The notes below the pieces were generated by a model. It ran no database searches, had not been told where the DNA came from, and saw nothing but the letters and a program-made list of their open reading frames with translations. Of a stretch of DNA of 64,000 nucleotides, positions 6,518-23,624 are shown piece by piece. Position numbers and translations under genes: made by a program. How positions within the stretch are numbered: position 1 is the stretch's first letter; every line of letters begins with the position of its first letter. This DNA is from a virus (Duplodnaviria; Caudoviricetes), in the IMG/VR virus record IMGVR_UViG_3300042554_000772, positions 760 through 64,759 of that record; one strand, written 5' to 3'.

Positions 6518-9500
6518 ATGCCCATAGACAAACTTATACCAAGATACTTAAACAAAGACGACGACTACCTCCTGGTTAAATCCGTGGAGATGGTTGACGC
6601 TTTGAATATTCAAACCGCAGATGACGAAGGAGGAAACGCTGGAGTTGTCAAGAATGCTCTTGGTAACGTAGTAGTAAGTACTAATAGCACAGGCGATATC
6701 CTACCGATTGGAGGGAATATAGTAATAGGAACAACGTCGTGCAAGCAAACAGGAGAAATATTTTATTTTGTATATAACGGGTTCGGAGACCATAGCATTT
6801 ATCAGTATACAAGCAAAAGGAATACTGTAAGATTGGTTTATCGGGACCAAGTCCTTAACTTTACAGCTACAGGGTTCGTTAAGGCAGACTGTTTAGTTAA
6901 AGAGAACGGGGATACACTGTTGTACTTCACTGACGGCATTACAGACCCCAAGAAGATTAACGCTACAAAAGCTTTAGCAAATACCTCTGGGTTTCTTGGT
7001 TATCCATACAGGCAGGTTGGATTAAGCGGTTATACTAGTGATGAGAAGCTTCTTAGTATCACCACTATTAAAGCCCCTCCATTAGAGGCACCAACAGTAG
7101 AGGTAACGACGGTTACTGGTATCATTTCCAACAACATAACCAAAAAGAACTTTCAGTTTGCTTATCAGTATATCTACGAAGACGGGGAGGTATCTGCTAT
7201 TTCACCTTATTCGGAATTAGCCCTTGACATAAATGATTTCCTTGACGGATTTGGTGACGCTGATTCTGACTCCAGCAGAAATGCAATAAACATAACCTAC
7301 AAGCATTCAAAAGGGGATGTTTCGAAAATAAGGATACTGTACCGTTCTGGTAATTTCCCTAATTTTTCTATATTCAAGGAAGTAGACAACAATCGCTCTT
7401 TATCTTCTGGTGTAGTTACATTCACTAATTCAACATTAGGTCAAATTATATCTGATAATGAGGTAAATAAACAATACGATGCTATCCCATTGTCAGCAAG
7501 AAGTCAAGTAATCAGCGGCAATCGGCTTTCTTATGGTAACTACCTTGAGTTTTACGATAATACCACTGTATCTGGCAATATTTTGTTAGAATACAACCAA
7601 GACGCTGGGAAAAAGACAAACATACTTTCCACAAATTTTGTTAATGGGCCTGGTACTATTGTCAGCGCCAATACTAGCGGAGTTAATAATCTGGAGTTCG
7701 AGCTGGATTTAGCAAATATGCCAGAGTCATCCTTATCCGACCCTTCTATTATATTAAATTTTTCCGTATTTATAAATAGGACCATTATAAACCAGTTAAC
7801 GTCTCCTTTTAATGTTGGGCCTTTATCTGGGATTATTGGAGGTCTTACTCTCGGCAATATGTTGTTGGATATACAGAAAAAATCAACATTTACAGCATAC
7901 TCGTCAAAAGCCGCTCTAGCATCTTCTGTAATAAACTTAATCGATGGGGATTATTTGTTCAATATTTCTCCAGAGGGAACATTGGTTAGCTCTATGACAA
8001 CCGTTTCTGGTCTCTCTATATCGCTAGTTAATGTTTATTTTGCTGGTTCTTTGGCGGCAAATGTATCAGCTGTTTCGGTTTCTGGAAGCGTTATAAAGTT
8101 TAAGATTACGCCAAAGTCAAACGGTCTTAATATAAATTCAGTAAAGATAACCCAATATAACCCATTACTACAGCAATCGTTTGATGTTACTAGCTTTTTT
8201 GCCCCTGTATCGTGGAATGGCATATCTATAAACAATTTGTACAATATAACTTATAATGGGTTAAAAATCGTCAATTTGAATAGAAGCTTTTTTATAAACG
8301 ATTCAACGTCTACAACTTTTAAATCTGGTCAAAACCATAAATTTGGTATTGTTTACTATGATTCCTATAACAGGAGTTCTGCTGTTAATGAATTAGGGGA
8401 GATTTACAATCCGACGGAAGGGGAAAGGCAAGAGGAATATGGCGCTGCCGCATTAGGGGCAGCTAAAGTCATAATAAGGCTTAAGTCAAGTCCTCCAAGT
8501 TGGGCAAAAAAATGGAGGCTTGTTTATTCACCATATCAAACTTATTCGTTTTGCTATACTTATTCTGCGGCAGAGGCTTTTGTTTCAAAGACATCTACCG
8601 CAACTGGCTCCACGCAAAATAGGTCTATTTACATATCTGCAAGGCACTTAGAGGGGAAGGATACATCATACAAAGAAAGCCGAAATTCAATCTTTAACTA
8701 CACTTATGCCCAAGGGGATAAACTAAGGATTATTAGTTACGTCCCCTCAACGGCTAACGGTGGTGCACTTTACCCAAAGCAATTCGTGTATGACATTATT
8801 GGGTATGAATACTTTGATGCGACAAACACGCCAGTGTCTTTAGCGACTGGGGCTACTAATTATAATGAAAGAGCTACTGGCCCTTTCTTCATATTGAAGG
8901 ATGAAAACTACACAGGGTTTAATGCTGATAGCATCCTAAATAATTATTCTAATTGGGCTAGTGATGTTGTTTTTGAGGTTTTTAGGCCTATCCAAAGCGT
9001 CGCTAATTCTGTGTACAGGGAGACAAAAACCCAAGGAGACGTTCTTCAGGCCAGTGGTGTTTTTTATCATCAGAGTCAATTTAGGGATAGAACTTATTCT
9101 TTTACGAATCAAAAATTAACAGTAACTAGCGGAACAGCTTATACGTCTGGGTCTATTAAATTCTATCCTGGAGACATCGTTAATATGACAGCCATATTCC
9201 CAGCTATAGGGTCCTACCAACTCACAATAAAAGACACATATAGGATATATGACGGTAGAACGGTGGTAGTCTTTAGTGGGCCACTACCAGATGCTGGGTA
9301 TAATATAGTATCCATTGCTAACATAGACGACTCTATATTGGACTCAAGTGTAGGTGATTGTTATTATAGATTAAGGCAAATAAAACTAAATCCAATCAGT
9401 GGAACAATAACAGCTTCTGGCTCATACACAACTAATCCAGCAAATGTTTCTGGTATAAGATATGTAGACTATTATGTTGAAGACACCAGTATTAGTGATT

Positions 9501-10930
9501 TTTACAAATCAGATAATCTTAGCTTAGGAAGGCCGAATGTTGTATCTTCAAACGCCAAACAGATTGAAAGAAAGTCATCCATCACCTATTCGGAGCCATA
9601 CTCGCTTGATACATCTGTATTGAAGCTATCATCATTTAACGGTGGGCAAGGGAACTTCGTGGACCTCCCGAACGCATACGGGGCTATCAATTACATGATA
9701 AACAACGGGGACACCATCACGGTTCTCCAAGAAGTAAAGTCCTCTGTAATCCCAATCAACAGGAACCTAGTAGAGTACGCTGACGGCAGTACAAACGTGA
9801 CCATATCAACGAATTACCTTGGCAATCAATCTGTTTATGCTGGAGACTACGGGACCCAGAATCCTGAGAGCGTTATGTCCTACAAGGGTCGTGTTTACTT
9901 CGCAGACGTTCGCTCTGGCAAGATTGTAAGGATTGGTGGCGACGGGATTGAGCCTATCAGCGAGAATAAGATTGACGCTTATACTCAGGACAAGTGTTTC
10001 ATCATCGCTTCTGCTAGCGGTTCATACAAGGTGATTGGCGGTATTGACCCCATGCATAATGAGTATCTAGTAACCTACACCAATGTTTCTGGTGGAACCA
10101 ATATCAAAGACACGATTGCATACGACACAGAGGATAAAGTGTGGAATACGAGGTATTCGTTCATCCCTGAGGCCTACGATAATATGGACAACTATATGTA
10201 CACATTCAAGGATGGCCGTATGTACAGGCATACTGATGCAGCTACACGCAATAGTTTCTATGGGAGTGGTACTGCTTCTACGCTTAAGTTAATATCAGCT
10301 TTCAATAACTCTATGGTCAAGGTTGCTGAAGCTTTGAGCATTGAGGGCAATAGCCAATGGTCAGCTCAAGTTAAGTCGACGATTAGCCAATCGTCTGGTT
10401 TTGAGCAGTGTTCTACGTTCATACAGCTATCTGATTACTCTTTAAAAGAGGGGATGTATTACGCTAGCATTCCAATGAATATCAATACTGGCCTTTCTCC
10501 AACGTCGAATAGAACGGTAATTGGATATGTGGCAGCTACTGGAACATGGGCTAGCGGGGCGACTATAACTTTAGGAAATCCTATTGTAGCCCCATTTCAA
10601 GCCAGTGGCAATGCATCTATCTTTTGTCTTAATGCTTCTGGAAGCATTGTTTCTACATTGGCTAGCGGAACATCGGTTTACGGCTATCAGAATATAGAAC
10701 AATTCGACAGGAACACCATACGATTAAGCAATTTAGTAGGTGCGCCACCATCAATCGCAACAGGAACCATCTTAGTCGTGGATAGCAATGCGTCTGTAGA
10801 CGGAGACCCCATTAGGGGGCCTTATTTCCTAATCGAATTAAGCAATAGCGGTATAGTACCCATTGAAGCATACGCCTTTAACGTATACTTCAGCAGGTCG
10901 AAGCTTCACAACGAATTAGTCACTCAATAG
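6518..10930 (+). CDS. tail stabilisation/muzzle protein (P22 gp10-like)
   Basis: 1470 aa; LNKDDD..L, DALNI, FQFAYQYIYEDGEVSAISPYS, FKSGQNHKFGIVYYDSYNRS, YGTQNPES, VYFADVRSG motifs. Confidence 0.8.
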   Translation: MPIDKLIPRYLNKDDDYLLVKSVEMVDALNIQTADDEGGNAGVVKNALGNVVVSTNSTGDILPIGGNIVIGTTSCKQTGEIFYFVYNGFGDHSIYQYTSKRNTVRLVYRDQVLNFTATGFVKADCLVKENGDTLLYFTDGITDPKKINATKALANTSGFLGYPYRQVGLSGYTSDEKLLSITTIKAPPLEAPTVEVTTVTGIISNNITKKNFQFAYQYIYEDGEVSAISPYSELALDINDFLDGFGDADSDSSRNAINITYKHSKGDVSKIRILYRSGNFPNFSIFKEVDNNRSLSSGVVTFTNSTLGQIISDNEVNKQYDAIPLSARSQVISGNRLSYGNYLEFYDNTTVSGNILLEYNQDAGKKTNILSTNFVNGPGTIVSANTSGVNNLEFELDLANMPESSLSDPSIILNFSVFINRTIINQLTSPFNVGPLSGIIGGLTLGNMLLDIQKKSTFTAYSSKAALASSVINLIDGDYLFNISPEGTLVSSMTTVSGLSISLVNVYFAGSLAANVSAVSVSGSVIKFKITPKSNGLNINSVKITQYNPLLQQSFDVTSFFAPVSWNGISINNLYNITYNGLKIVNLNRSFFINDSTSTTFKSGQNHKFGIVYYDSYNRSSAVNELGEIYNPTEGERQEEYGAAALGAAKVIIRLKSSPPSWAKKWRLVYSPYQTYSFCYTYSAAEAFVSKTSTATGSTQNRSIYISARHLEGKDTSYKESRNSIFNYTYAQGDKLRIISYVPSTANGGALYPKQFVYDIIGYEYFDATNTPVSLATGATNYNERATGPFFILKDENYTGFNADSILNNYSNWASDVVFEVFRPIQSVANSVYRETKTQGDVLQASGVFYHQSQFRDRTYSFTNQKLTVTSGTAYTSGSIKFYPGDIVNMTAIFPAIGSYQLTIKDTYRIYDGRTVVVFSGPLPDAGYNIVSIANIDDSILDSSVGDCYYRLRQIKLNPISGTITASGSYTTNPANVSGIRYVDYYVEDTSISDFYKSDNLSLGRPNVVSSNAKQIERKSSITYSEPYSLDTSVLKLSSFNGGQGNFVDLPNAYGAINYMINNGDTITVLQEVKSSVIPINRNLVEYADGSTNVTISTNYLGNQSVYAGDYGTQNPESVMSYKGRVYFADVRSGKIVRIGGDGIEPISENKIDAYTQDKCFIIASASGSYKVIGGIDPMHNEYLVTYTNVSGGTNIKDTIAYDTEDKVWNTRYSFIPEAYDNMDNYMYTFKDGRMYRHTDAATRNSFYGSGTASTLKLISAFNNSMVKVAEALSIEGNSQWSAQVKSTISQSSGFEQCSTFIQLSDYSLKEGMYYASIPMNINTGLSPTSNRTVIGYVAATGTWASGATITLGNPIVAPFQASGNASIFCLNASGSIVSTLASGTSVYGYQNIEQFDRNTIRLSNLVGAPPSIATGTILVVDSNASVDGDPIRGPYFLIELSNSGIVPIEAYAFNVYFSRSKLHNELVTQ

Positions 10931-13127: not shown

Positions 13128-16100
13128 ATGGATACAGAAGTTAAAAAGTTTGTGGAGCGCTCCATCAAAAGGGGCGACTCTTTAGCCCAAATTAAATCTA
13201 CGCTTGTTTCCTACGGCTGGGAGGAGAATGTAAACGAGGCGACAGGTTACTACGACGAGTTTAAAAAAAAAAGTCCCGCTGGAACTGGCTTAAGGGCCGC
13301 TGGGGTTTCTCCTTCGAGGCAAACGGTTACTCCGTCTTCATCGGGGTTTGCTTCTCAAGAAACTAAGAATATACCATTAGAGGACCCGCTCCTCACCAAG
13401 AAAGACGGGTATGCTAAGTCTTTGATGGAGCAGCTGAACTTAGCTGCAAAGGACAAAAACAATAGGAATAAGTACGTTCCAACCATCAACAAGCTTTGGA
13501 ATGAATACTCGTCAATCGATAGGGGAGCGCCTACCCCTTTAAGTCTATTTGAGGATAATGGGGCTATAAGCAAGAACTCATTAAATCTTCTTAATGAATC
13601 TTCTGCTAGGAATGCAGAGAGAATGAAAAGGGAAGCTATAGCAATAGCTAAAGATGATAATGTTTTAGAGTCGGGTGTAAGAAGTTTATGGGCGGGCTTA
13701 CTTGGTACAGCAAATTATCTTGGCGACTTGGTTGACCCAGATAGCTACGATGATGTGCCAGATGCAAAAACAGACCTTGAAAAGGAAGCTGAAGCTCAAT
13801 CGGCTAGGGCTCAGAAAGCCTCCTATGGACGTAAGTTATTAGCTGGGTACACGGACAAACAGATTGAAGATGGGTTCTACAAGAACTTTGCTGATGGCAA
13901 TGTAGCTACAGCACTCGGTCTGTTTGGTAGGGATGTGGTAGAGCTTCTGCCTCAAGTCGCTGCAAACGCTATCCCATACGTCGGTCTTCCCGCTCTGGCA
14001 GCGTCTGCTGGTGGTCAAGCATGGCTTAAAATTAAAGACGACGAGAAATACAACACACTCGAAAAGTTTCTGTACGCACCGCTTGTTGGTGCTGCTGAAT
14101 ATTTTACAGAGAAGTTCTTCGGCATGGATAGAAAAATGATTCAAGAAGGACTGTCAAAAGCATTCGGTAAGACCATCACATCAGCAGCTGATATCCCAAA
14201 GAAAGAGCTCGGTGATATGATTTTCGGCACACTGCCAAAAGCTGTTAGAGCTCCGTTGGAAGAAGGTTTTGAGGAAAGTCTTGTGAGCACTTTTACGCAA
14301 ACCCTTGACAAGATTATGGCTGAAAAGCCATTTGACCCTGTTGAAATCGCTGAGTCTGCTATGCTTGGTGCTGGGGCTGGTGGTTCGACATACGCATTGG
14401 TGCGAGGCAGTTCCGCTTTGCTCCAAACCCCGTTGTTCTCTGATGTATACAAGATTACGAATACCGCAGCGAATATTGACAATATACTCAAATCCAAAGA
14501 CATCAGCGACGAAGAGAGGGTTATCCTAACCGACCGATTAAACGGGTATAAGACTCAAATGAGGAAGCTTCAAGATGGGGCTAGCGAATACTACAAGCAG
14601 TTCTCACAAGAAGATAAACAGAAGACGCTTGAGCTAAATCAAACGATATCTAGAGGCATCCGCTCTTACAGCACCATGAAGACGGCTGAAGCTAAAGCTG
14701 AAACCGTAAACAGAATCAAGCAATCACTAGCCGAGAAGGCACAAATCGAACAGAAATATGATAGTGCGCAAAAACAACAAGTACCAAGTCCAGTCGTCCA
14801 AGGGGCGCAACCTGGGGGAGTTCCCGTCCAAGGAACAGGCACAGAAACGCCTCAAGCAGGTGGAGTACTTCAAGTACCTAGCCAGCAAGAAGAAAAAGTA
14901 GCAGAAGCTGCTAAGCAACCAAACGTCGGATTCAGACCTACAAAGGCTAGCCTTACATCTCAAACGCTTCCTCAGATTCTTTCTAACCTAAAGTCTTATG
15001 TTGAAAGTATTCCTGAAGAAACGCTGCAGAAGTTCGAGACAACACGCCAGTCAATTACGAATGGGTTTGAATCCGTTGCTAATGTAATATCCTCCTTTGC
15101 CAAGGAAAGTCTTAACGTCGAAGTTGAGGCCATTAACACCGAAGACGAATGGAATAAGGCAACGATGGACCCCACCACTGGAAAGCCAGAGAAGCTGTCT
15201 AGGGGCCTGTATTACCAAAGAGGACAAGAGGGGGCTCCCTCTAAGATTATCCTGTTCGCCCCAGCATTGCTTGGCAACACGGTCTATCACGAGGGTATCC
15301 ACGAGATAGTCCCACAGGCATTTGGTCAGGAGGGTATAAACAAGGTGGCTAAAGCGCTTGCAAGCGGAATAAAGCGAGACCCAGGGCTTAATGCAAAATT
15401 TGGTAACTTCTTGTCTCAATACGAGCAAGGTGACAAAAACGAAGAGCTTCTTGCTGAGTTGGGGGCAATGGTTGCAGCTGGAGATATCGATGTCGAGATT
15501 ACGAAGAGCCTCGCCACACGATTTATGGAAGCCGTAGCGAGCGTATTAGGAGCGGTTGGTATCAAGATGGCACCGAACTCTTCGCAGCTCTCTGAGGCGT
15601 TTTTAAGCTACTCACAGAAGCTCGGAGCTGGGGCTAAGCTTGATATTCAAAAGACAGCTGAAACCAAAGAGGAAGGAGACAAAAAGGGGCCAAAGAGACA
15701 AGCTGTTGGACTTAGAACGAAAGAGGAAAGTCTTGCTGAATTTGGCTTCCCAGTCGGTGATAAAGTAACCAATATCCGTCAGGTAGGTGCTGCGTTAGAG
15801 AAAAGACAACAGAAGAAGTATATTAAAATAGCTAAAAACGATACCAGCGACAAGGCAAAAGATATTATCTCAAACTATATGGTTGATGAGGTGATATTTG
15901 AACTAGAATCACTCGGTGAGTCTTCTGCTAAGGGTTGGTATGGGGAAAAGTTTCAGAAAGCACTTGATTTGCTGTCTGAGTCTATACCCAGCCTAAAAGA
16001 TAAAGGCAACAGAAATTTGTTTACCATGCTTGTTGCTATAACTTCTGATGGACAAAAGGTTATCAATAATTTCACCTATGCTATATCGTTATACAACTCT

Positions 16101-19100
16101 TACTTAAAGGATGGCGTTGTATCTGACAAATTTAATTTTGGTGGAGATAGGAATTCTGGGATGAAGATAAATGTAGGCAATATAAATAGATTAATTAAGC
16201 AATATGGGAATGATTTTGTTGCAATCAATGATTTTCTATTGCAAACAGATAGCTACGGTAATATCAAGAAGAAATACAATATAAAAAAGAGCGATTACAA
16301 AGTAACCACAACGATGCCAATTTCGGCTGGGGTATTTGGGCCTAAATTAGGAGCGTTCTTTGCGAACCTTTCTGGTCAAGAGAACTATTTGACCATGGAT
16401 AGATGGTGGAGTAGAACTTTTAATAGATATAGGGGTATACTCTTACCAACTGTAAAAGAACAGGGCAAGCAGAAGTTTTTAAATGCCATAGGAAAACCAA
16501 ACATTAGCAACAACGCCTTCCTAAAAGAGGTCAAAAAGTATGCTGACTCATACATAAAGAAAAAATACAAAAACGGTACAGCTATAGAGAAAGCGGCCAA
16601 TACCATCTATAAAGCTGCTTTTGTAGAGCTTAATGATAAGCCTTTTAATGCTGGAGATAGGGATATGATGATTGAGACAACGCAGGTTGCTCAAGAAAAA
16701 CTCAAGAAGGCTGGTTATGATTTATCAATGGCTGATATTCAGGCCATATTATGGTATTTCGAAAAAAGACTTTACGCAGAGATACAGAGCAAAAAGTCAG
16801 CAATGGACGTGGATTATTCCAATGCTGTGACCAAATTAATAGAAGGGAAAAAGGATTTATCATTCTTGCCAAACGAAGTCTCGAAAATTGTTAATGTAAA
16901 GGAATCTGAAGACGAATATGTTGATGCTATTAGTTCTCCTAGTAGCAATATTATACAGCTAGATGAAGCTGTTGATTTAGCTGCTGTTGATAAGGCCACA
17001 GAGACTATAAATAACGCTCAGAAAAGAAAGACCCCAAAGCGTCAAGGTTTTGAGGGTAAGCAGTCAGCGACATTCGTAAGAGAGTTAGATATCGCTATTA
17101 CCCCAGCGACAACCGAAAGAAAGTTTGATAAGGTAACAGCTAGAATAAAGAGCCTATCTGAGAAATACGATAGATTAGTAAAAGAGTCAGAGAAAGGGAT
17201 TGACAACTCAGAGGAGATTAATAACGTAGCCTCTCAAATACTAGATGCAGCGAGGAAACAGCTTGCTGCTAGGATTTCTAAAGTAAAAGGTGCTTCCGTT
17301 AAGTTTGACGATGATTTTAGAGGTCTGTACAACAATGTATTCGAGCCATCTTTTAACCTCAAGCTAAGGCTTACACCACAATCAAATGAGAATGAGGTAT
17401 CTCAGATTCTCAACGAGTTTGCTGAGAGATATACTCAAGATGCGTTTATCGTAGAAACAGCGTCAGAAGAATCAGAGGACTTTAGGAAGCAGTTAGGGGA
17501 AAATGTAATGCCTCTTGGCGATTACGACGAAAAGACAAATATGTCTCATTTCCCGCAACTTTATGCGGAATTTACCAGTCCTTTATCCGATAAGGAGCTA
17601 AATGAACTATCTTTGTCTTTAAGAGAAGGCGGAATTGATGGATTCTCGCTTAATAAGAAAGAATTAAAGATAACTATATTCCCATTTTTAACAGAAGAAC
17701 AAGAAAAATTATCAGAAGATGAGCAGCGAAGAATCAAAAAAGAATATTACGACGAACAAATCAGCTCAGCCCGAAAAGCTATGGCTAACGTCAGCCGAGT
17801 GGGAAGAGATGTCAAGTCAGAGGTCAGGTTCAGGAAGTCAACCTACAAAGGGGCAAAATCAACCGAAGGAGCAACCAGACAATACGATAGAGATAACTTT
17901 CTTAAAGCGCACAAAGACGGATTAACTAAGTATGAGCTGCTAGCTAAAGAGTTCAATAAGCTTCGTCTGGAGGAAATAGAGCTCTCCAAGAAAAAGGAGA
18001 AGCTACCTAATGATAAGCAAAAAAGGTATGATGAAATAAAAAGCGTCATTCAGCCTATCATCCAAGACACAATAGCTTTAAATGAGCCTTTTTACAAGGA
18101 GGCTAAGCGTGAGATAGAGAGAATTGCGTCGTCTGTTTCCCGCAACCTAAGAGGAGCATTCGTTTCTAGGTTCAACATAAAGAGACCAGAAAGGGCCTCT
18201 ATAAAGGTTATGCGATGGTATAACTCTGATATAGAAGACCTCGGTGATGGGGCTAGAGTAAATATCATCGTTGATAACGAGCAACAGGCTGACAGGCTGT
18301 TTAACGAAATCGACAAAAAGAACCCATCAAAAAACCCTGACAGGGAGAGGCGTGTAAATGAGACCACCGATTTGGGTTATCCGAAGCGTCTCATCGAGAT
18401 GGATACAAAGAATGGATTCATAGGGGAAATACAGATAATGACCCCAGAGGGGTATCTGGCTAAAGACGGGGTTGATTACTTTGACGACAATCAGCAAGAC
18501 TTTGCTAGAAAGAGACTCAAAGAAGTTCAGAATCGATTGGGATGGGCTATACCAGATGGTATAGGGCACTATTTCTATGAAATCAATCGTGACGAAAACA
18601 TAAACGACGAACTTAGGGAGCGTGCTAAAGCCCTTAGTCTTTCTTATTACAAGGCGTTTACAAACCCATCGTTTAAGTTAAGTGAAAGCGAGTTCACTAA
18701 AGAGCTGGCTAAGTTCAAAGAAGACGTAGACAAGGCTGATAAGAGCACTTGGGATGAAGGCAATAGCGGTAAATCACCAAAAACGCTAGACACCTATCTA
18801 GAAGAATCTGGAAAAAAAGAGCCAAAAGAAAGCGCACCTACTAAGAAGGCCATGCTCCAGATTATTGGTTCTAACTCACAGATGAAAGAATGGACATCTA
18901 AGATGCTATTAAAGGCAAACGAGATGGAGAGACGTGGAGTTAAGCCGAAAACAATCTTTAATGTGACTGGATGGGAGAGAGGAGCCGATAAGAAATGGAG
19001 ATACCCAGTTCCAACATTCAAGCTTAACTACACTAAAGTGGCTGAATTCAACGAAGGGCCAGTAGGTAATACGGTTAGCCTTTACGACCTTGTTGAAAAT

Positions 19101-22100
19101 AAGGGGAGGTTCAAGGAGGATACATCTAAATTCGGTTACAATAGATACGAATACGATGACAAGGGTAAGACAAGGACAAAGGAGAACGAGGACGTATTTG
19201 ATTTCTACCCAGAATTTGCTAATATGAAAGTAACGCTGGGACCATCTAATGGTTCTACGTTTTTTAAACATACGAAATCACCTGGGTCAAAAGGGCTTGG
19301 TGAAATAACTATGTCAAAAGATTGGTACAACAAGAGTCCAGACCACTTTTTCTTTGTTCTTGTTCACGAAATACAGCACGCAGTACAGAGAGAAGAGGGA
19401 TTTGCTGTTGGTGGTAGTGCATCAACCGTTGACAATGAAATCGATGAAGTTATTAAGGCAAACGAAAGAATCCTTAAAAACAAGGACAAGATTGTACCAG
19501 CTCTAAAAGAGAACATAAAAGAGCAAAAAAAGCGGATAAAATGGTATATCGACCAAGGGTATAGCCAAGAAACAATGATTAAGGATGGCGTATTGACCAC
19601 TCTTGATGGCTTAGAGACTCAGGTTCGTATGATTGACGATGTTGAGAAGCAATTAAACCTTTTAAAACAGATAAAAGCGGCTACTAATTTATCCAGCGTA
19701 GAGAAGTATAGAATCCTTTCTGGAGAGGTAGAGGCGGATAATGCTGCTAGAAGAGCTGCTTTTCAACTTGCTAAGGGGTCTCTTGCTACACAGCCGCTCA
19801 TAGATACCGAAGAAATCCCTAGAGAGTATCAGCTCATAATCACCCCAGATATCGAGGATATGTCTCTACCGTCTTTCTTGACTAAAATGGGATATCCCTC
19901 TAAACCCAAGCGTCAAGATATCTTAAGAGTAGCTGCACTGAAAGACGTGGAGAGTACGGCTAAGGCGTTAGAGGAGAAGTATTCAGCACAACCGATTAAA
20001 AGAAATGATATAATTAACAATAATCCACAAGAAATATATGCTTTATCAATAGGTATAAATCCAAGTAATTTATCCTATTTAGGTAAGGGGGATTTCGGGA
20101 AGGCATATAGCACTGACATTGGAACTGTTATAAAAATAACTTCATCAGCCAATGAGGCAGAAATAGCTTTAAGTTTAATAGGAAAAAAGGGAAACCACGC
20201 AGAAATATATGATGTAAAAAAAGTTGAAAACGAGTTTATTATACATCAAGAAGAATTAGACACTTATTCAGAAATTGAAGACAATCTACAAACAGTAGAA
20301 AATATTCTAAGCGAACAAGAATTGCCAATTCAGTATTTAGACTATTTAGACTATGACGAACTAAGTCAAGAGTCCAAAGATGAATATGATAGTTTATCGA
20401 ATTTCATTTCTGATTTAGAAGACATAAATGGACTTTATAGGAATTTAGGTATTGAAGCATCTGATTTGCAAAGTGGTAATTTAGGTTACGACAAAAACGG
20501 GAAACTAAAAGCATTTGACTTACAAGATAAATCTTCAAAGATAAAATCAAAAGATGTTAATGCAGATGCCCTTAAAGATAAAAATCAAGTAATCTCCGAA
20601 GCCTACCACGAAGCCAAGAAAGACGGGTCTAATCCTGAATTAGTCAAAGCGGTTGAGGACTTGTTGGTTGGAGAACAACAGCAACCAAAGCGCCAAGGCA
20701 TCTCAAAAGCTCAAGGGCCACTAATACCGATAGTCTACAACAGCTTGCTGCAGCAATCCACTAGGAACGCAGATGGGACGAATACCCCACCGTACACGCT
20801 TCAGGAGTGGCTGACCATGATGACCCCTTACCTGAACGCACAGACAGCTACTGCAATCTACAACGGTGTTGCAAGGAACAAGCCACCGTTCACTGCACCA
20901 AGCATCCAAGACGCTTACGATAGCTCAAAGAAACGCATGGAGGCAGGGAAGAACAAGGCTTTCTTCACATGGAACAACCTCAAGAAATACTTCATTGACA
21001 GACAGGCAGAGCTCAAGAAGGCGATTCTCGCCTCTGGGATGAAGAACGCTTACAACTATCTGGTCAACAAGGCTGGGTCTGGGGCTAGAGCTGCCTACTT
21101 CTACTACGAGAAGGAGAAGGATATCTACAAAGACCTCAAGAAGGAACAGATTGAAAAGCTCGACCAGATTATCATGCTCAGGCGTATCATCGAGATTGAT
21201 AGCAACTTCGATGAGCGTGGCGAAGCCCGCCCAAAGCACACCAACGGATTCAATAAGGGGTACGCTGAGATGGAGCTTTCAAGGCTCCAGAGTGAGCTTG
21301 GGGACGCTGCTTACAACGACCTCAACAACCGTGCAACCAAGTACTTTGATGCTTTCCGTTCGCTGTTAGACTCTATGTACGAGGAGGGGCTTGTTAGCGA
21401 GGAGCTGTACGAGCAGCTGAGGGATATCGATTACCAACCACGATTGTTCCTAGACCACGTTTTCGAGATGGATGAGCCATCCATGCGTGAGATGAACCTA
21501 AGCGCTGCACAAATCAAGCGAATCAAGGAAGGTAGCGAGGGTGACATTATGTTTGACTCAAGGTTCCTCCTAGCTCTTTATGCTAAGAGCGCATTCTCCA
21601 AGATTGCACGCAACAAGGCTAACAAGGAGATTGCCAAGGCCACCGAGGCACAGGGCAACGAGTCATGGGTATCCAAGACTGATAAGCCAGGCTTCAGCGA
21701 GGTTACTTACTTTGAAGATGGTGTCAAGAAGTCTTTCTACTTAAAGGATAACTTGAAGTCAGAGCTTGACGACATCAGCCGTGTATCAGGGATGCCTCAG
21801 AACATACAGAAGCTAATCGGTATGGTTACGGGTTCATTTGCAGTCAAGCTGTTGGCCACGAGGGCAAACCCATTGTTTGTCGCTAAGAACGTACCAAGGG
21901 ACTATCTGCACGTTCTCTTCTTCACGAAAGCATACGATAATATGTCCCTACCGCTTGCAGCCATGAGGCTCGCTGGTGACTTCATCAAGGGTGTTAAGAG
22001 CAAGCTCCAAGACGACCAAGACTTCAAGGACTTCGTTGAGTTCGGTGGTGGTATGGACTTTCTGTCCACAGAAGGAATGGAGAGTATGATTACGAACAGA

Positions 22101-23624
22101 ACTGTAACTAACAAGATTATTGAGAAGCTTGGTAAGGCTGGGGAATTATCAGAGATTGGCTTCCGCTTGGCTATGTACAAGAAATTCAAGGAAGACGGCA
22201 TGAAGGCCCTAGGACCTAACGCAACGGAGGATGAGGTTACAAGGGTTAAGGTTCAAGCTGTTACACAGGCTAGAGAGATGATTGACTTCTCTCAGGGCGG
22301 TATTGCAACGAAGAACTTGGAGATTGTCTCCCCCTACATCAACTCAGCATTCCAAGGCTTCAGGGTATCAACTAGCTACATTCAGAATAACCCCAAAGAG
22401 TTCGCTAAGAAGCTTGGATACTTATCTATCGGTGTAATGATGCTTGCGCTTTACAATGCGATGCTTGGTGACGACGATATGGAGGATATCCCAGAGGAGA
22501 CCAAGCGTAAGTACTTTATCATCATGACTCCGTTTACTTTCGAAGAGGACGGGAAGACCAAGCGTCACTATGTCAAGATAGCGAAGACACAACAGCTTGC
22601 ACCATTCATTGCTGGTCTTGAGCTGACATCGGATTACTTTGTTGCAGGGGTTATGGGGCGTAAGCCAAGAGAATCCAAGGATGCTTATGAGTACGCTTGG
22701 AAGGGGGCTACAATGTACTTCCCTAAAGACCCAAGCAACATCAAGAAAGAAATCTCTTCATCGGTTCCGTTGTTTGCTGCTATAGCTGCCTATGACATGA
22801 ATTACGACACCTACAGAGAGCGTGCTGTGTCAATGGACTACAACCAAGTGCTCCCACAGGACGAAGACTTCACCAACAAGCAAGTCCCTTACTTTTACAA
22901 GGCTCTCGCTCAAGGTATCGGTGCATCTGGCGGTGAGGCTGGCCCTAAGCGCCTTCAAGTCGCTACTGAGAAGTTCGTAACCACCCCGTATTCATCCTTG
23001 CTAACCATGGGTGCGTACACGATACTTGATTCGTTCTCAAGGCTATTCGAGCTTAAGGGCCCAGGAGGTATCCCCGTAAAAGACCAAGCAGCTATCTCTA
23101 ACAGCGTCAGCAAATCGTTAGGACTCAGTGCTTCCAAGGTGTTCACGGGTGCTACTGAGCCAGACTGGAGGAGCTACACGAGGAAGGAAGAGATTGAGCG
23201 CATCAACATGGAGGAGAAGTCCGAAAGACGTGGTATCAAGATTGCAGCTCAGAATATCGGTCAGAAGTACTTTGAGGCTTCCAACGCAAAGGATAGCAAG
23301 GCTATGAGCGAAGCTAGGAAGGAGTACCAAGATGAGTTGATGCGAATCAAAAAGGAGAGCGGTGTACCAGACGCTAAGTATTTTATGGATGCCTTCCAGC
23401 AAGCCAGAAAGTACGGGAAAGCCACCAACCCAGAGTACAACGACATCAGCTACGCTGCAAGCAACGAAGCTAAAGCGAGAATCATCATGGAGTACGGGGG
23501 TAGGACGATGAGCAGAAAAGAGTTAGTAGAATACATCAACGACTATAAGCGGAAGACTGGTAAGCCAATCAATGGTTCCGAAATCCTCCGTGAGTATCAA
23601 AAAGAAACAGGCTATGGTAAGTAA
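13128..23624 (+). CDS. giant polyvalent cargo protein (zincin, glycosylase-like, RelA/SpoT-like, LPD23-zincin, protein kinase, LPD38-like)
   Basis: HEGIH at 15288; GWY..AITS..GPKLGAF..TMDRWW..QAILW; K.PERA..K..DGAR..GY..EIQI..GH.FYE; TGWERGADKKWR plus HEIQH and GEVEA; GKGDFG..K..DLQSGN..AFD; IDFSQGG..PYINSAFQG. Confidence 0.8.
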   Translation: MDTEVKKFVERSIKRGDSLAQIKSTLVSYGWEENVNEATGYYDEFKKKSPAGTGLRAAGVSPSRQTVTPSSSGFASQETKNIPLEDPLLTKKDGYAKSLMEQLNLAAKDKNNRNKYVPTINKLWNEYSSIDRGAPTPLSLFEDNGAISKNSLNLLNESSARNAERMKREAIAIAKDDNVLESGVRSLWAGLLGTANYLGDLVDPDSYDDVPDAKTDLEKEAEAQSARAQKASYGRKLLAGYTDKQIEDGFYKNFADGNVATALGLFGRDVVELLPQVAANAIPYVGLPALAASAGGQAWLKIKDDEKYNTLEKFLYAPLVGAAEYFTEKFFGMDRKMIQEGLSKAFGKTITSAADIPKKELGDMIFGTLPKAVRAPLEEGFEESLVSTFTQTLDKIMAEKPFDPVEIAESAMLGAGAGGSTYALVRGSSALLQTPLFSDVYKITNTAANIDNILKSKDISDEERVILTDRLNGYKTQMRKLQDGASEYYKQFSQEDKQKTLELNQTISRGIRSYSTMKTAEAKAETVNRIKQSLAEKAQIEQKYDSAQKQQVPSPVVQGAQPGGVPVQGTGTETPQAGGVLQVPSQQEEKVAEAAKQPNVGFRPTKASLTSQTLPQILSNLKSYVESIPEETLQKFETTRQSITNGFESVANVISSFAKESLNVEVEAINTEDEWNKATMDPTTGKPEKLSRGLYYQRGQEGAPSKIILFAPALLGNTVYHEGIHEIVPQAFGQEGINKVAKALASGIKRDPGLNAKFGNFLSQYEQGDKNEELLAELGAMVAAGDIDVEITKSLATRFMEAVASVLGAVGIKMAPNSSQLSEAFLSYSQKLGAGAKLDIQKTAETKEEGDKKGPKRQAVGLRTKEESLAEFGFPVGDKVTNIRQVGAALEKRQQKKYIKIAKNDTSDKAKDIISNYMVDEVIFELESLGESSAKGWYGEKFQKALDLLSESIPSLKDKGNRNLFTMLVAITSDGQKVINNFTYAISLYNSYLKDGVVSDKFNFGGDRNSGMKINVGNINRLIKQYGNDFVAINDFLLQTDSYGNIKKKYNIKKSDYKVTTTMPISAGVFGPKLGAFFANLSGQENYLTMDRWWSRTFNRYRGILLPTVKEQGKQKFLNAIGKPNISNNAFLKEVKKYADSYIKKKYKNGTAIEKAANTIYKAAFVELNDKPFNAGDRDMMIETTQVAQEKLKKAGYDLSMADIQAILWYFEKRLYAEIQSKKSAMDVDYSNAVTKLIEGKKDLSFLPNEVSKIVNVKESEDEYVDAISSPSSNIIQLDEAVDLAAVDKATETINNAQKRKTPKRQGFEGKQSATFVRELDIAITPATTERKFDKVTARIKSLSEKYDRLVKESEKGIDNSEEINNVASQILDAARKQLAARISKVKGASVKFDDDFRGLYNNVFEPSFNLKLRLTPQSNENEVSQILNEFAERYTQDAFIVETASEESEDFRKQLGENVMPLGDYDEKTNMSHFPQLYAEFTSPLSDKELNELSLSLREGGIDGFSLNKKELKITIFPFLTEEQEKLSEDEQRRIKKEYYDEQISSARKAMANVSRVGRDVKSEVRFRKSTYKGAKSTEGATRQYDRDNFLKAHKDGLTKYELLAKEFNKLRLEEIELSKKKEKLPNDKQKRYDEIKSVIQPIIQDTIALNEPFYKEAKREIERIASSVSRNLRGAFVSRFNIKRPERASIKVMRWYNSDIEDLGDGARVNIIVDNEQQADRLFNEIDKKNPSKNPDRERRVNETTDLGYPKRLIEMDTKNGFIGEIQIMTPEGYLAKDGVDYFDDNQQDFARKRLKEVQNRLGWAIPDGIGHYFYEINRDENINDELRERAKALSLSYYKAFTNPSFKLSESEFTKELAKFKEDVDKADKSTWDEGNSGKSPKTLDTYLEESGKKEPKESAPTKKAMLQIIGSNSQMKEWTSKMLLKANEMERRGVKPKTIFNVTGWERGADKKWRYPVPTFKLNYTKVAEFNEGPVGNTVSLYDLVENKGRFKEDTSKFGYNRYEYDDKGKTRTKENEDVFDFYPEFANMKVTLGPSNGSTFFKHTKSPGSKGLGEITMSKDWYNKSPDHFFFVLVHEIQHAVQREEGFAVGGSASTVDNEIDEVIKANERILKNKDKIVPALKENIKEQKKRIKWYIDQGYSQETMIKDGVLTTLDGLETQVRMIDDVEKQLNLLKQIKAATNLSSVEKYRILSGEVEADNAARRAAFQLAKGSLATQPLIDTEEIPREYQLIITPDIEDMSLPSFLTKMGYPSKPKRQDILRVAALKDVESTAKALEEKYSAQPIKRNDIINNNPQEIYALSIGINPSNLSYLGKGDFGKAYSTDIGTVIKITSSANEAEIALSLIGKKGNHAEIYDVKKVENEFIIHQEELDTYSEIEDNLQTVENILSEQELPIQYLDYLDYDELSQESKDEYDSLSNFISDLEDINGLYRNLGIEASDLQSGNLGYDKNGKLKAFDLQDKSSKIKSKDVNADALKDKNQVISEAYHEAKKDGSNPELVKAVEDLLVGEQQQPKRQGISKAQGPLIPIVYNSLLQQSTRNADGTNTPPYTLQEWLTMMTPYLNAQTATAIYNGVARNKPPFTAPSIQDAYDSSKKRMEAGKNKAFFTWNNLKKYFIDRQAELKKAILASGMKNAYNYLVNKAGSGARAAYFYYEKEKDIYKDLKKEQIEKLDQIIMLRRIIEIDSNFDERGEARPKHTNGFNKGYAEMELSRLQSELGDAAYNDLNNRATKYFDAFRSLLDSMYEEGLVSEELYEQLRDIDYQPRLFLDHVFEMDEPSMREMNLSAAQIKRIKEGSEGDIMFDSRFLLALYAKSAFSKIARNKANKEIAKATEAQGNESWVSKTDKPGFSEVTYFEDGVKKSFYLKDNLKSELDDISRVSGMPQNIQKLIGMVTGSFAVKLLATRANPLFVAKNVPRDYLHVLFFTKAYDNMSLPLAAMRLAGDFIKGVKSKLQDDQDFKDFVEFGGGMDFLSTEGMESMITNRTVTNKIIEKLGKAGELSEIGFRLAMYKKFKEDGMKALGPNATEDEVTRVKVQAVTQAREMIDFSQGGIATKNLEIVSPYINSAFQGFRVSTSYIQNNPKEFAKKLGYLSIGVMMLALYNAMLGDDDMEDIPEETKRKYFIIMTPFTFEEDGKTKRHYVKIAKTQQLAPFIAGLELTSDYFVAGVMGRKPRESKDAYEYAWKGATMYFPKDPSNIKKEISSSVPLFAAIAAYDMNYDTYRERAVSMDYNQVLPQDEDFTNKQVPYFYKALAQGIGASGGEAGPKRLQVATEKFVTTPYSSLLTMGAYTILDSFSRLFELKGPGGIPVKDQAAISNSVSKSLGLSASKVFTGATEPDWRSYTRKEEIERINMEEKSERRGIKIAAQNIGQKYFEASNAKDSKAMSEARKEYQDELMRIKKESGVPDAKYFMDAFQQARKYGKATNPEYNDISYAASNEAKARIIMEYGGRTMSRKELVEYINDYKRKTGKPINGSEILREYQKETGYGK
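13263..13366 (+). other. A10 slippery tract and -1 frame extension KSRWNWLKGRWGFSFEANGYSVFIGVCFSRN*
   Basis: TTT AAA AAA AAA AGT at codons 45-49; the -1 frame is open to TAA 13364-13366 with preferred C/G-ending codons. Confidence 0.5.
14758..14901 (+). CDS. nested 47-aa basic protein in the +1 frame of the giant gene
   Basis: MIVRKNNKYQVQSSKGRNLGEFPSKEQAQKRLKQVEYFKYLASKKKK; A-rich start context; resembles a small phage family of form MIRK..RNLG.F...A.KRL.QVEYFK. Confidence 0.75.
   Translation: MIVRKNNKYQVQSSKGRNLGEFPSKEQAQKRLKQVEYFKYLASKKKK

Follow-up and report, generated by a model that had tools for sequence, protein, structure and literature searches.

The window analysed here is a 64,000-nucleotide stretch of a virus of the Caudoviricetes (IMG/VR record IMGVR_UViG_3300042554_000772, positions 760 to 64,759) and covers nearly all of the 64,759-bp record. 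Its gene for a large polyvalent (cargo-type) protein of 3498 amino acids (aa) (13128..23624, plus strand) was found to contain, in the +1 frame, a 47-codon open reading frame (ORF) running from ATG to TAG (14758..14901, plus strand). Sequence, homology, structure prediction with AlphaFold2 (AF2) and selection analysis indicated that this ORF is very probably a functional nested gene, so that the same bases code twice. The small frame is under purifying selection for its amino-acid sequence, and the host frame over the same bases is selected for openness and for a hydrophilic acidic linker composition. The small gene is probably expressed by internal initiation, judging from the sequence around its start.

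The ORF had been proposed in an earlier note made by a model from the letters of the DNA, and both its coordinates and its peptide were exactly as claimed there. Between the ATG at 14758 and the TAG at 14899-14901 there are 47 codons, none of which ends in T (0/47), and they overlap residues 544-592 of the giant protein. The product is strongly basic, with a computed isoelectric point of 10.4. Read in the host frame (frame 0; 14757..14903, plus strand), the span encodes a linker in which E, Q, V, G, A and P make up 76% of the residues. The leader of the nested gene (14728..14757, plus strand) is A-rich, with 10 A in its last 20 bases, and is without a Shine-Dalgarno (SD) motif. The bases at -3 and -6 of the nested ATG are both A (...ACAGAAAT ATG), as the earlier note had it. 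A stop in the +1 frame, TAG at 14728-14730, lies 9 codons 5' of the ATG. No promoter motif of the TAnnTTTG type was seen in 14600-14757 by eye, no scan having been made. The giant gene contains many alternative-frame ORFs of at least 40 aa, with lengths of 40-74 codons being common, so the length of the nested ORF is unremarkable and the case for it depends on homology and conservation. The exact 47-aa protein was absent from 15 billion predicted proteins, and blastn of window positions 14000-15800 against the phage collection gave no match.

The small-protein family and the nested loci

A phmmer search with the 47-aa peptide produced 370 proteins at E ≤ 1e-3 among 1.84 billion representative proteins, and the best match had an E-value of 5.7e-10 and 67% identity. 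A tblastn search against 50,697 phage records gave matches in 286 records, the best being a free-standing, unannotated ORF of 43-50 codons in Aeromonas phage 1233. The earlier note had pointed to a resemblance to a free-standing small phage protein and asked for a homology search of the 47 aa; such a protein does exist, the Aeromonas phage ORF being one example, and the search uncovered a widespread family. The homologue in Aeromonas phage 1233 (L001:2980-3132) corresponds to OR359403.1 54730-54852 on the minus strand, a record with 28 annotated features only, among which the small gene is not found.

The domain occurred in four settings, which were stand-alone proteins of 45-55 aa, the N-terminus of proteins of 100-300 aa, the C-terminus of proteins, and in-frame positions within giants of 900-3000 aa. 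Stand-alone members begin with MIVK or MIRK and end with a basic tail, as the window ORF does. Identity to the window peptide was 43-67% over the full length, with S13, A28, R31, L32 and K39 as the signature. Aligned with 31 short relatives, the peptide of the window kept 5/5 invariant and 6/6 nearly invariant residues, the conserved residues present in it being those of the signature and I2, V11, G16, G20, E36 and F38. Pfam and NCBIfam searches with the 47 aa, LPD models included, gave no family even at E ≤ 10. The PHROGs search gave two marginal matches to internal parts (phrog_2859 and phrog_3684; E 0.0034 and 0.01), both of them families of uncharacterised function. Only unnamed clusters of 45-49 aa were found in the ESM Atlas, and the free-standing relatives are either unnamed or labelled 'hypothetical protein'.

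In Shigella phage DS8 and many 45-48-kb siphophages, the domain forms residues 1-45 of a head-module protein of ~470 aa which depositors have named hypothetical, coat protein, DUF2213 protein or prohead protease. The DS8 protein matched Pfam DUF2213 at E 0.007, below the cut-off, and the ~470-aa gene of the DS8 type stands directly 5' of two further head-module genes. The giant in-frame carriers that were examined are polyvalent proteins with ART-PolyVal, SprT-like, GNAT and DUF5662 domains. A blastp comparison of the window giant protein with the 150 best domain carriers gave no match at 1e-3, which showed that the in-frame carriers are not its relatives. The 812-aa neighbour of the small gene in Aeromonas phage 1233 was also compared with the giant protein and nothing significant was found.

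Three in-frame copies (L018:5989-6123, L023:5989-6123 and L031:5923-6132) have TGA where other copies have W (IVKKGSK*QVQ), and from this substitution the phages concerned probably read TGA as Trp. An architecture of ~250 aa, composed of a short leader, the small domain and ~156 residues opening with IDLT...FSYSAIMR, was seen in L015, L016, L028, L037, L042, L057, L060, L071, L083, L087, L088 and L092. Pfam gave no family for L015 (a 251-aa carrier) or for the giant ORFs of L024 and L075. In L055 (3711-8248), two cytidyltransferase-like genes flank a copy of the small ORF, and fusions to cytidyltransferase-like proteins occur in BFVD too. In-frame copies are preceded by L-x-E-K, with [LIVM]-x-E-x in 58/94 (P0004-P0153 flanks), and their 3' flank is often H-[MKLIV]-[NKD]-E, with E at +4 in 57/128; P0106 (a repeat protein) and P0003 are excluded from these counts. 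The site of the T4-type prohead protease is L/I-x-E. The flanks of the in-frame copies resemble such sites, and the domain may be cut out of polyvalent precursors.

The nested arrangement was found in 23 loci on 22 contigs, drawn from the window and IMG/VR, with L003, L005 and L013 being one contig that was entered once. An intact +1-frame ORF with its own start and stop was kept in these divergent relatives in 23/23 loci; in the start column, 20 loci have ATG and the other 3 GTG, and the ORF reaches its own stop after 43-54 codons in each. A scan of viral contigs with the family alignment gave 500 relatives, and the setting was classified for the best 80. These comprised 18 nested loci, 25 small free-standing genes, 25 N-terminal copies in ORFs of 110-400 codons and 12 in-frame copies in ORFs of at least 400 codons. 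The host ORFs of the 18 nested loci are 1728-2747 codons long, and the small ORF stands in the +1 frame in 18/18, at ~415-864 residues into the giant ORF. In 15/17 nested loci, the N-terminal module of the giant protein could be matched to its counterpart in the window at 24-36% identity. L024 and L075 gave no match at all, and L008 and L011 have a giant protein whose upstream part is without a match to P0002; the nested gene is present in all four. In L006-L011, the adjacent zincin region is 35-39% identical and the small ORF 51-60% identical, in the +1 frame of an uninterrupted giant ORF. Its start falls in the same column and its stop directly after FKHKKK, with the flanks unalignable. No copy of the small ORF was found in L012, a more distant relative of the zincin region. 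Stand-alone homologues are present and the frame is kept open in relatives, the reverse on both counts of the observations that the earlier note had named as speaking against its proposal. An assembly error was ruled out, as the structure recurs on 22 contigs and in public runs.

Selection on the two reading frames

Pairwise counts by the Nei-Gojobori method (NG86) were made for the 23 nested ORFs, L007 and L009 having been dropped as near-duplicates of L008 and L011. The small frame gave a pooled ratio of the proportions of nonsynonymous and synonymous differences (pN/pS) of 0.43, compared with 1.29 in the host frame and 1.07 in the third frame. The small frame had the lower pN/pS in 245/253 pairs, and it was the lower one in 11/11 disjoint pairs (0.09-0.68 vs at least 0.81). 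Differences at positions 1, 2 and 3 of the small-ORF codons numbered 3104, 2588 and 4467, respectively. Between the window and its closest relative, L003, there were 3 base differences inside the ORF, each of which leaves the small protein unchanged but alters an amino acid in the host frame. Among the variants listed for 14758-14901 from contigs of four public runs, 6/6 were at third positions of the small ORF; 56 further differences over the whole stretch stand outside those listed. The synonymous-site pattern in homologues, which the earlier note had put forward as a check, showed purifying selection on the small frame. Its description of the host frame as a Q/P/G/V linker also agreed with the composition given above and with the host pN/pS of ~1.3.

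Openness of the host frame was tested in 20,000 trials per locus, in each of which the codons of the small ORF were redrawn among their synonyms at the frequencies of the surrounding giant gene. The host frame was open in 0.03-0.27% of the resampled trials (a fraction of 0.002 for the window), with 4.6-5.7 stops expected. A stop in the host frame needs T at a third position of the small ORF, and the host frame therefore stays open through avoidance of T at third positions (T3). Over the domain, the -1 frame was open in 18/18 nested copies vs 0/59 non-nested homologues, and T3 was 2.4% in nested copies vs 25-36% in non-nested homologues. L018, L023 and L031, which have the in-frame TGA in the domain, are left out of the openness counts. 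Free-standing homologues have ordinary codon usage, and their -1 frame contains ~5 stops on average and is open in 0/23. At the stop-prone sites of nested copies, T3 was 0/271.

Ordinary codon optimisation was ruled out as the cause of the T3 depletion by the codon usage of the window genes. The lowest T3 of any window gene was 23% (eligible codons), and 47-codon segments of these genes without a T-ending codon numbered 0/15,870. The 'preferred codons' that the earlier note had ascribed to the ORF thus stood in part, as the codon bias is real but is explained better by stop avoidance for the host frame than by ordinary preference.

Fold, expression and possible role of the small protein

AF2 on the family alignment produced a model with a predicted local distance difference test (pLDDT) score of 94.4, with strands at residues 2-5, 8-12 and 18-22 and a helix of 22 residues at 25-46. 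BFVD members superposed on it with a root-mean-square deviation of 0.6-1.1 Å and a query-normalised TM-score of 0.7-0.88, at E-values of only 6e-3 to 0.1. These matches comprised family members in which the domain is joined to cytidyltransferase-like, XkdF-like or polyvalent proteins, as well as short proteins of 52-59 aa from two myophages. Foldseek gave no match in the PDB at E ≤ 1e-3, and a profile search against the PDB produced nothing significant (WRI1, E 0.24). With VIA-align, the best matches were halves of PH domains (Z 5.4), AP2 2gcc (Z 4.4) and lambda Int 2wcc (Z 4.2), which have a generic strand-strand-strand-helix arrangement in common; the small proteins HVO_2922 and NMB1088 were further generic structure matches.

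Free-standing copies adjoin genes for the large terminase, portal, adaptor, tail-fibre and virion-structural proteins. This neighbourhood, together with the prohead-protease-like and polyvalent fusions, placed the family in a late virion-associated module. The family turns up in phages of widely differing types, in head-module and polyvalent cargo proteins and as stand-alone late genes, and it therefore probably serves some function common to virion biology in general. An accessory role in the capsid interior, acting with the packaged cargo proteins, is suggested tentatively from this context. The small protein may bind packaged DNA, itself or a common partner in the capsid interior.

In the proposed route of expression, the AUG at 14758 would be initiated independently on the same late mRNA as the giant gene. 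Frame 0 here encodes no more than an acidic, disordered linker that joins the conserved N-terminal module to the first effector (zincin) module, and the +1 frame contains an ancient small gene that is complete from start to stop codon. The product would be a free basic protein of 47 aa with three β-strands and a long helix, and nesting would couple its synthesis in time and place to that of the cargo protein. Other phages seem to make the same polypeptide either from a late gene that stands alone or as a module read in frame within a polyvalent or prohead-protease-like protein. The leader is SD-less and A-rich like those of the other genes of the phage (an SD-like 4-mer was found in 6/50 window genes, and leaders are A-rich), which fits independent initiation. 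An SD-like AAGGA/AGGAGG was present 5' of the small ORF in L024 and L075.

Four other explanations were weighed. A programmed +1 frameshift just before 14758 would end at the TAG at 14901 and give a product of ~590 aa, composed of the N-terminal module and the small domain, beside the full-length protein. Larger proteins with the domain at the extreme C-terminus do exist (P0022, P0082 and P0152), and an open host frame with selection on the small frame would be expected here too. However, a small-frame stop lies 2-26 codons 5' of the start (2-3 codons in 7/23 loci), and no slippery motif is common to the bases between this stop and the start in the 23 loci, which leaves entry by frameshift unsupported. 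In addition, the column of ATG or GTG starts is kept in 23/23 loci and is not required by such entry, and the start position is mostly K in in-frame homologues. Frameshifting is considered improbable. The chance that the ORF arose fortuitously in an alternative frame of a long gene, where ORFs of such length are common, is negligible; it is refuted by the 370 homologues and by conservation in 23 loci under purifying selection. The ORF could also be a relic, namely an unexpressed former in-frame or free-standing copy kept by recent ancestry or by a role at the DNA level such as a recombination handle between modules. The mosaic boundary between the window and L003 at ~40 nt 5' of the ORF would agree with this, as would the form of the ORF as an island of nucleotide conservation between unalignable flanks and the other contigs that match the ORF core only. 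Against a relic, synonymous changes are abundant (pS 0.2-0.7) and the amino acids are kept, which indicates selection at the protein level and not at the DNA level. Start and stop are both kept in 23/23 loci and differences are concentrated on third codon positions of the ORF, and a relic is very improbable.

The last of the four concerns function and had been raised in the earlier note, where the small protein was thought to be a dedicated inhibitor or chaperone of the effector domains of the giant protein, bound to them during assembly. The nested position guarantees co-expression with the cargo protein, and the nested gene adjoins the conserved N-terminal module in 15/17 loci, directly before the first zincin. 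However, the domain occurs at 55-70% identity with unrelated partners (ART-PolyVal, SprT-like, GNAT, LRR, cytidyltransferase-like and prohead-protease-like), and it also stands by itself next to terminase, portal and tail-fibre genes. The nested gene moreover persists in L008 and L011, where the upstream part of the giant protein is unmatched, and in L024 and L075, where no match was found. An inhibitor or chaperone is therefore an unlikely role, and less likely than a general virion-associated one. The related proposal of a captured gene serving as a linker fits, with the nested frame being the old and widespread one.

Several points weigh against a functional nested gene with the role suggested here. 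The 253 pairs are not independent, 2/11 disjoint pairs share near-identical members (window/L013 and L039/L041), and pS is near saturation between the more distant loci. T3 is also low at 'safe' sites of nested copies, at 21/323 (6.5%) vs ~42% in giant genes, so that stop avoidance alone is insufficient for the codon bias; selection on the make-up of the linker or on expression of the small gene may contribute as well. As regards expression, the locus is covered only by contigs from RNA libraries (X19; 14398-15355), which may be DNA carry-over, are uninformative on the frame and demonstrate neither transcription nor translation; gaps in cover in X8 and X24 are likewise uninformative. The fold searches yielded nothing decisive (best Z 5.4), leaving the function to neighbourhood and fusions alone. 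Finally, in-frame members are near neutral in charge by a residue count made by hand, and a DNA-binding role may for this reason not be general.

A wider reading that joins these results is speculative. Phages would need a free polypeptide of ~45 aa in the capsid and would make it in three interchangeable ways, by a free-standing late gene, by excision from polyvalent precursors, to which the motifs L-x-E-K ahead of in-frame copies and H-[MLI]-N-E behind them point, or by a nested out-of-frame gene. The last would be the way of a freshwater crAss-like clade, in which translation would be tied to ribosome traffic on the giant cargo mRNA, and the nested form would have arisen when two adjacent cargo genes fused across an older small gene in another frame. 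If true, this would be overprinting in reverse and a general assembly route for polyvalent giant genes.

Related systems, the giant gene and the phage genome

Rz1 nested in Rz of phage lambda and genes B, K and E of phiX174 are the textbook nested phage genes, and nested genes of these types are usually viewed as the younger, overprinted ones. As in those systems, a whole small gene with its own start and stop is embedded in a larger one that runs in the same direction but is read in another frame, and a single mRNA would serve both. The present case differs in that the nested frame is old and widespread whereas the host frame is a derived, unconstrained linker (pN/pS ~1.3), in that the host is a 3498-aa polyvalent cargo gene, and in its persistence across 23 loci whose giant proteins can be aligned at 24-36% identity or not at all. 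This unusual polarity, an old gene inside a younger linker frame, bears on the assembly of giant polyvalent genes from smaller genes. The locus is also a clean and statistically strong example of dual coding in uncultured phages, in which gene callers miss the small gene. Further nested copies could be sought simply by their codon signature, with no T at third positions and an open -1 frame.

The unnamed family of 45-55 aa, which includes the Aeromonas phage 1233 ORF and the small proteins of Vibrio phage phi-pp2 and Yersinia phage TG1 (BFVD), resembles the window peptide in its MIVK-type start, signature residues, basic tail and predicted fold. Those genes are free-standing and have ordinary codon usage, in contrast to the nested one. 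A small domain family is hereby defined for which there is no Pfam, NCBIfam or named PHROG model. The DUF2213/XkdF-like siphophage genes, such as that of Shigella phage DS8, carry the same domain but there it is fused in frame. AP2/ERF and lambda-integrase arm-type DNA-binding domains and YegP-like small domains are alike in having a three-stranded sheet against a C-terminal helix, and an 'LGtYdt.eeA' motif is present as in AP2. However, the matches to AP2 and integrase-arm domains are weak and tied with unrelated folds, and do not amount to evidence of membership.

Iyer et al. 2017 (PMC5512222) predicted that polyvalent proteins of phages and conjugative elements are packaged in the head and delivered with the DNA. 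The proteins treated there are similar to the window host gene in its LPD23 domain and to the in-frame carriers in their ART-PolyVal, SprT-like, GNAT and DUF5662 domains. The words 'overlapping', 'frameshift', 'linker' and 'AP2' do not occur in the main text of that paper. In the titles and abstract openings of the literature on overlapping or cargo genes of crAss phages and Crassvirales and on embedded phage genes, no description of this nested gene was found.

The giant protein is arranged as an N-terminal module of ~540 aa, effector modules with HExxH motifs and LPD23, and a conserved C-terminal module of ~900 aa. The ~540-aa N-terminal module is common to most of the nested-type relatives. 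LPD23 was matched at 37.7 bits against a Pfam cut-off of 27 (E 1.8e-9), and LPD38 gave a weak match in the C-terminal module (19.3 bits, below the cut-off). The protein shows two HExxH motifs, and the first zincin module is located directly 3' of the nested gene. With an LPD-type Pfam domain and several effector modules in one polypeptide, the gene product has the make-up of a large polyvalent protein. The small domain is present once in the window. The stretch is carried by lake and freshwater metagenome runs, and a 1470-aa ORF (6518-10930) matched crAss_MUZ_C, the crassvirus muzzle C-terminal domain, at 26.6 bits against a cut-off of 27. From this sole crAss marker examined, the 65-kb freshwater phage seems to be crAss-like.

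The mosaic boundary with L003 was located at 14715..14757 (plus strand), where identity of the giant protein is 48% upstream vs 97% downstream. From ~14715 on, the DNA of the window is nearly identical to that of L003, the boundary being ~40 nt 5' of the nested ATG. These close relatives have exchanged N-terminal modules, and one DNA contig showed a diverged replacement of 14394-14675. Finally, PKRQ occurs four times in the giant protein (residues 855, 1303, 2260 and 2520) and PKRL twice (1752 and 3273), at apparent module boundaries, and these motifs may be processing sites.

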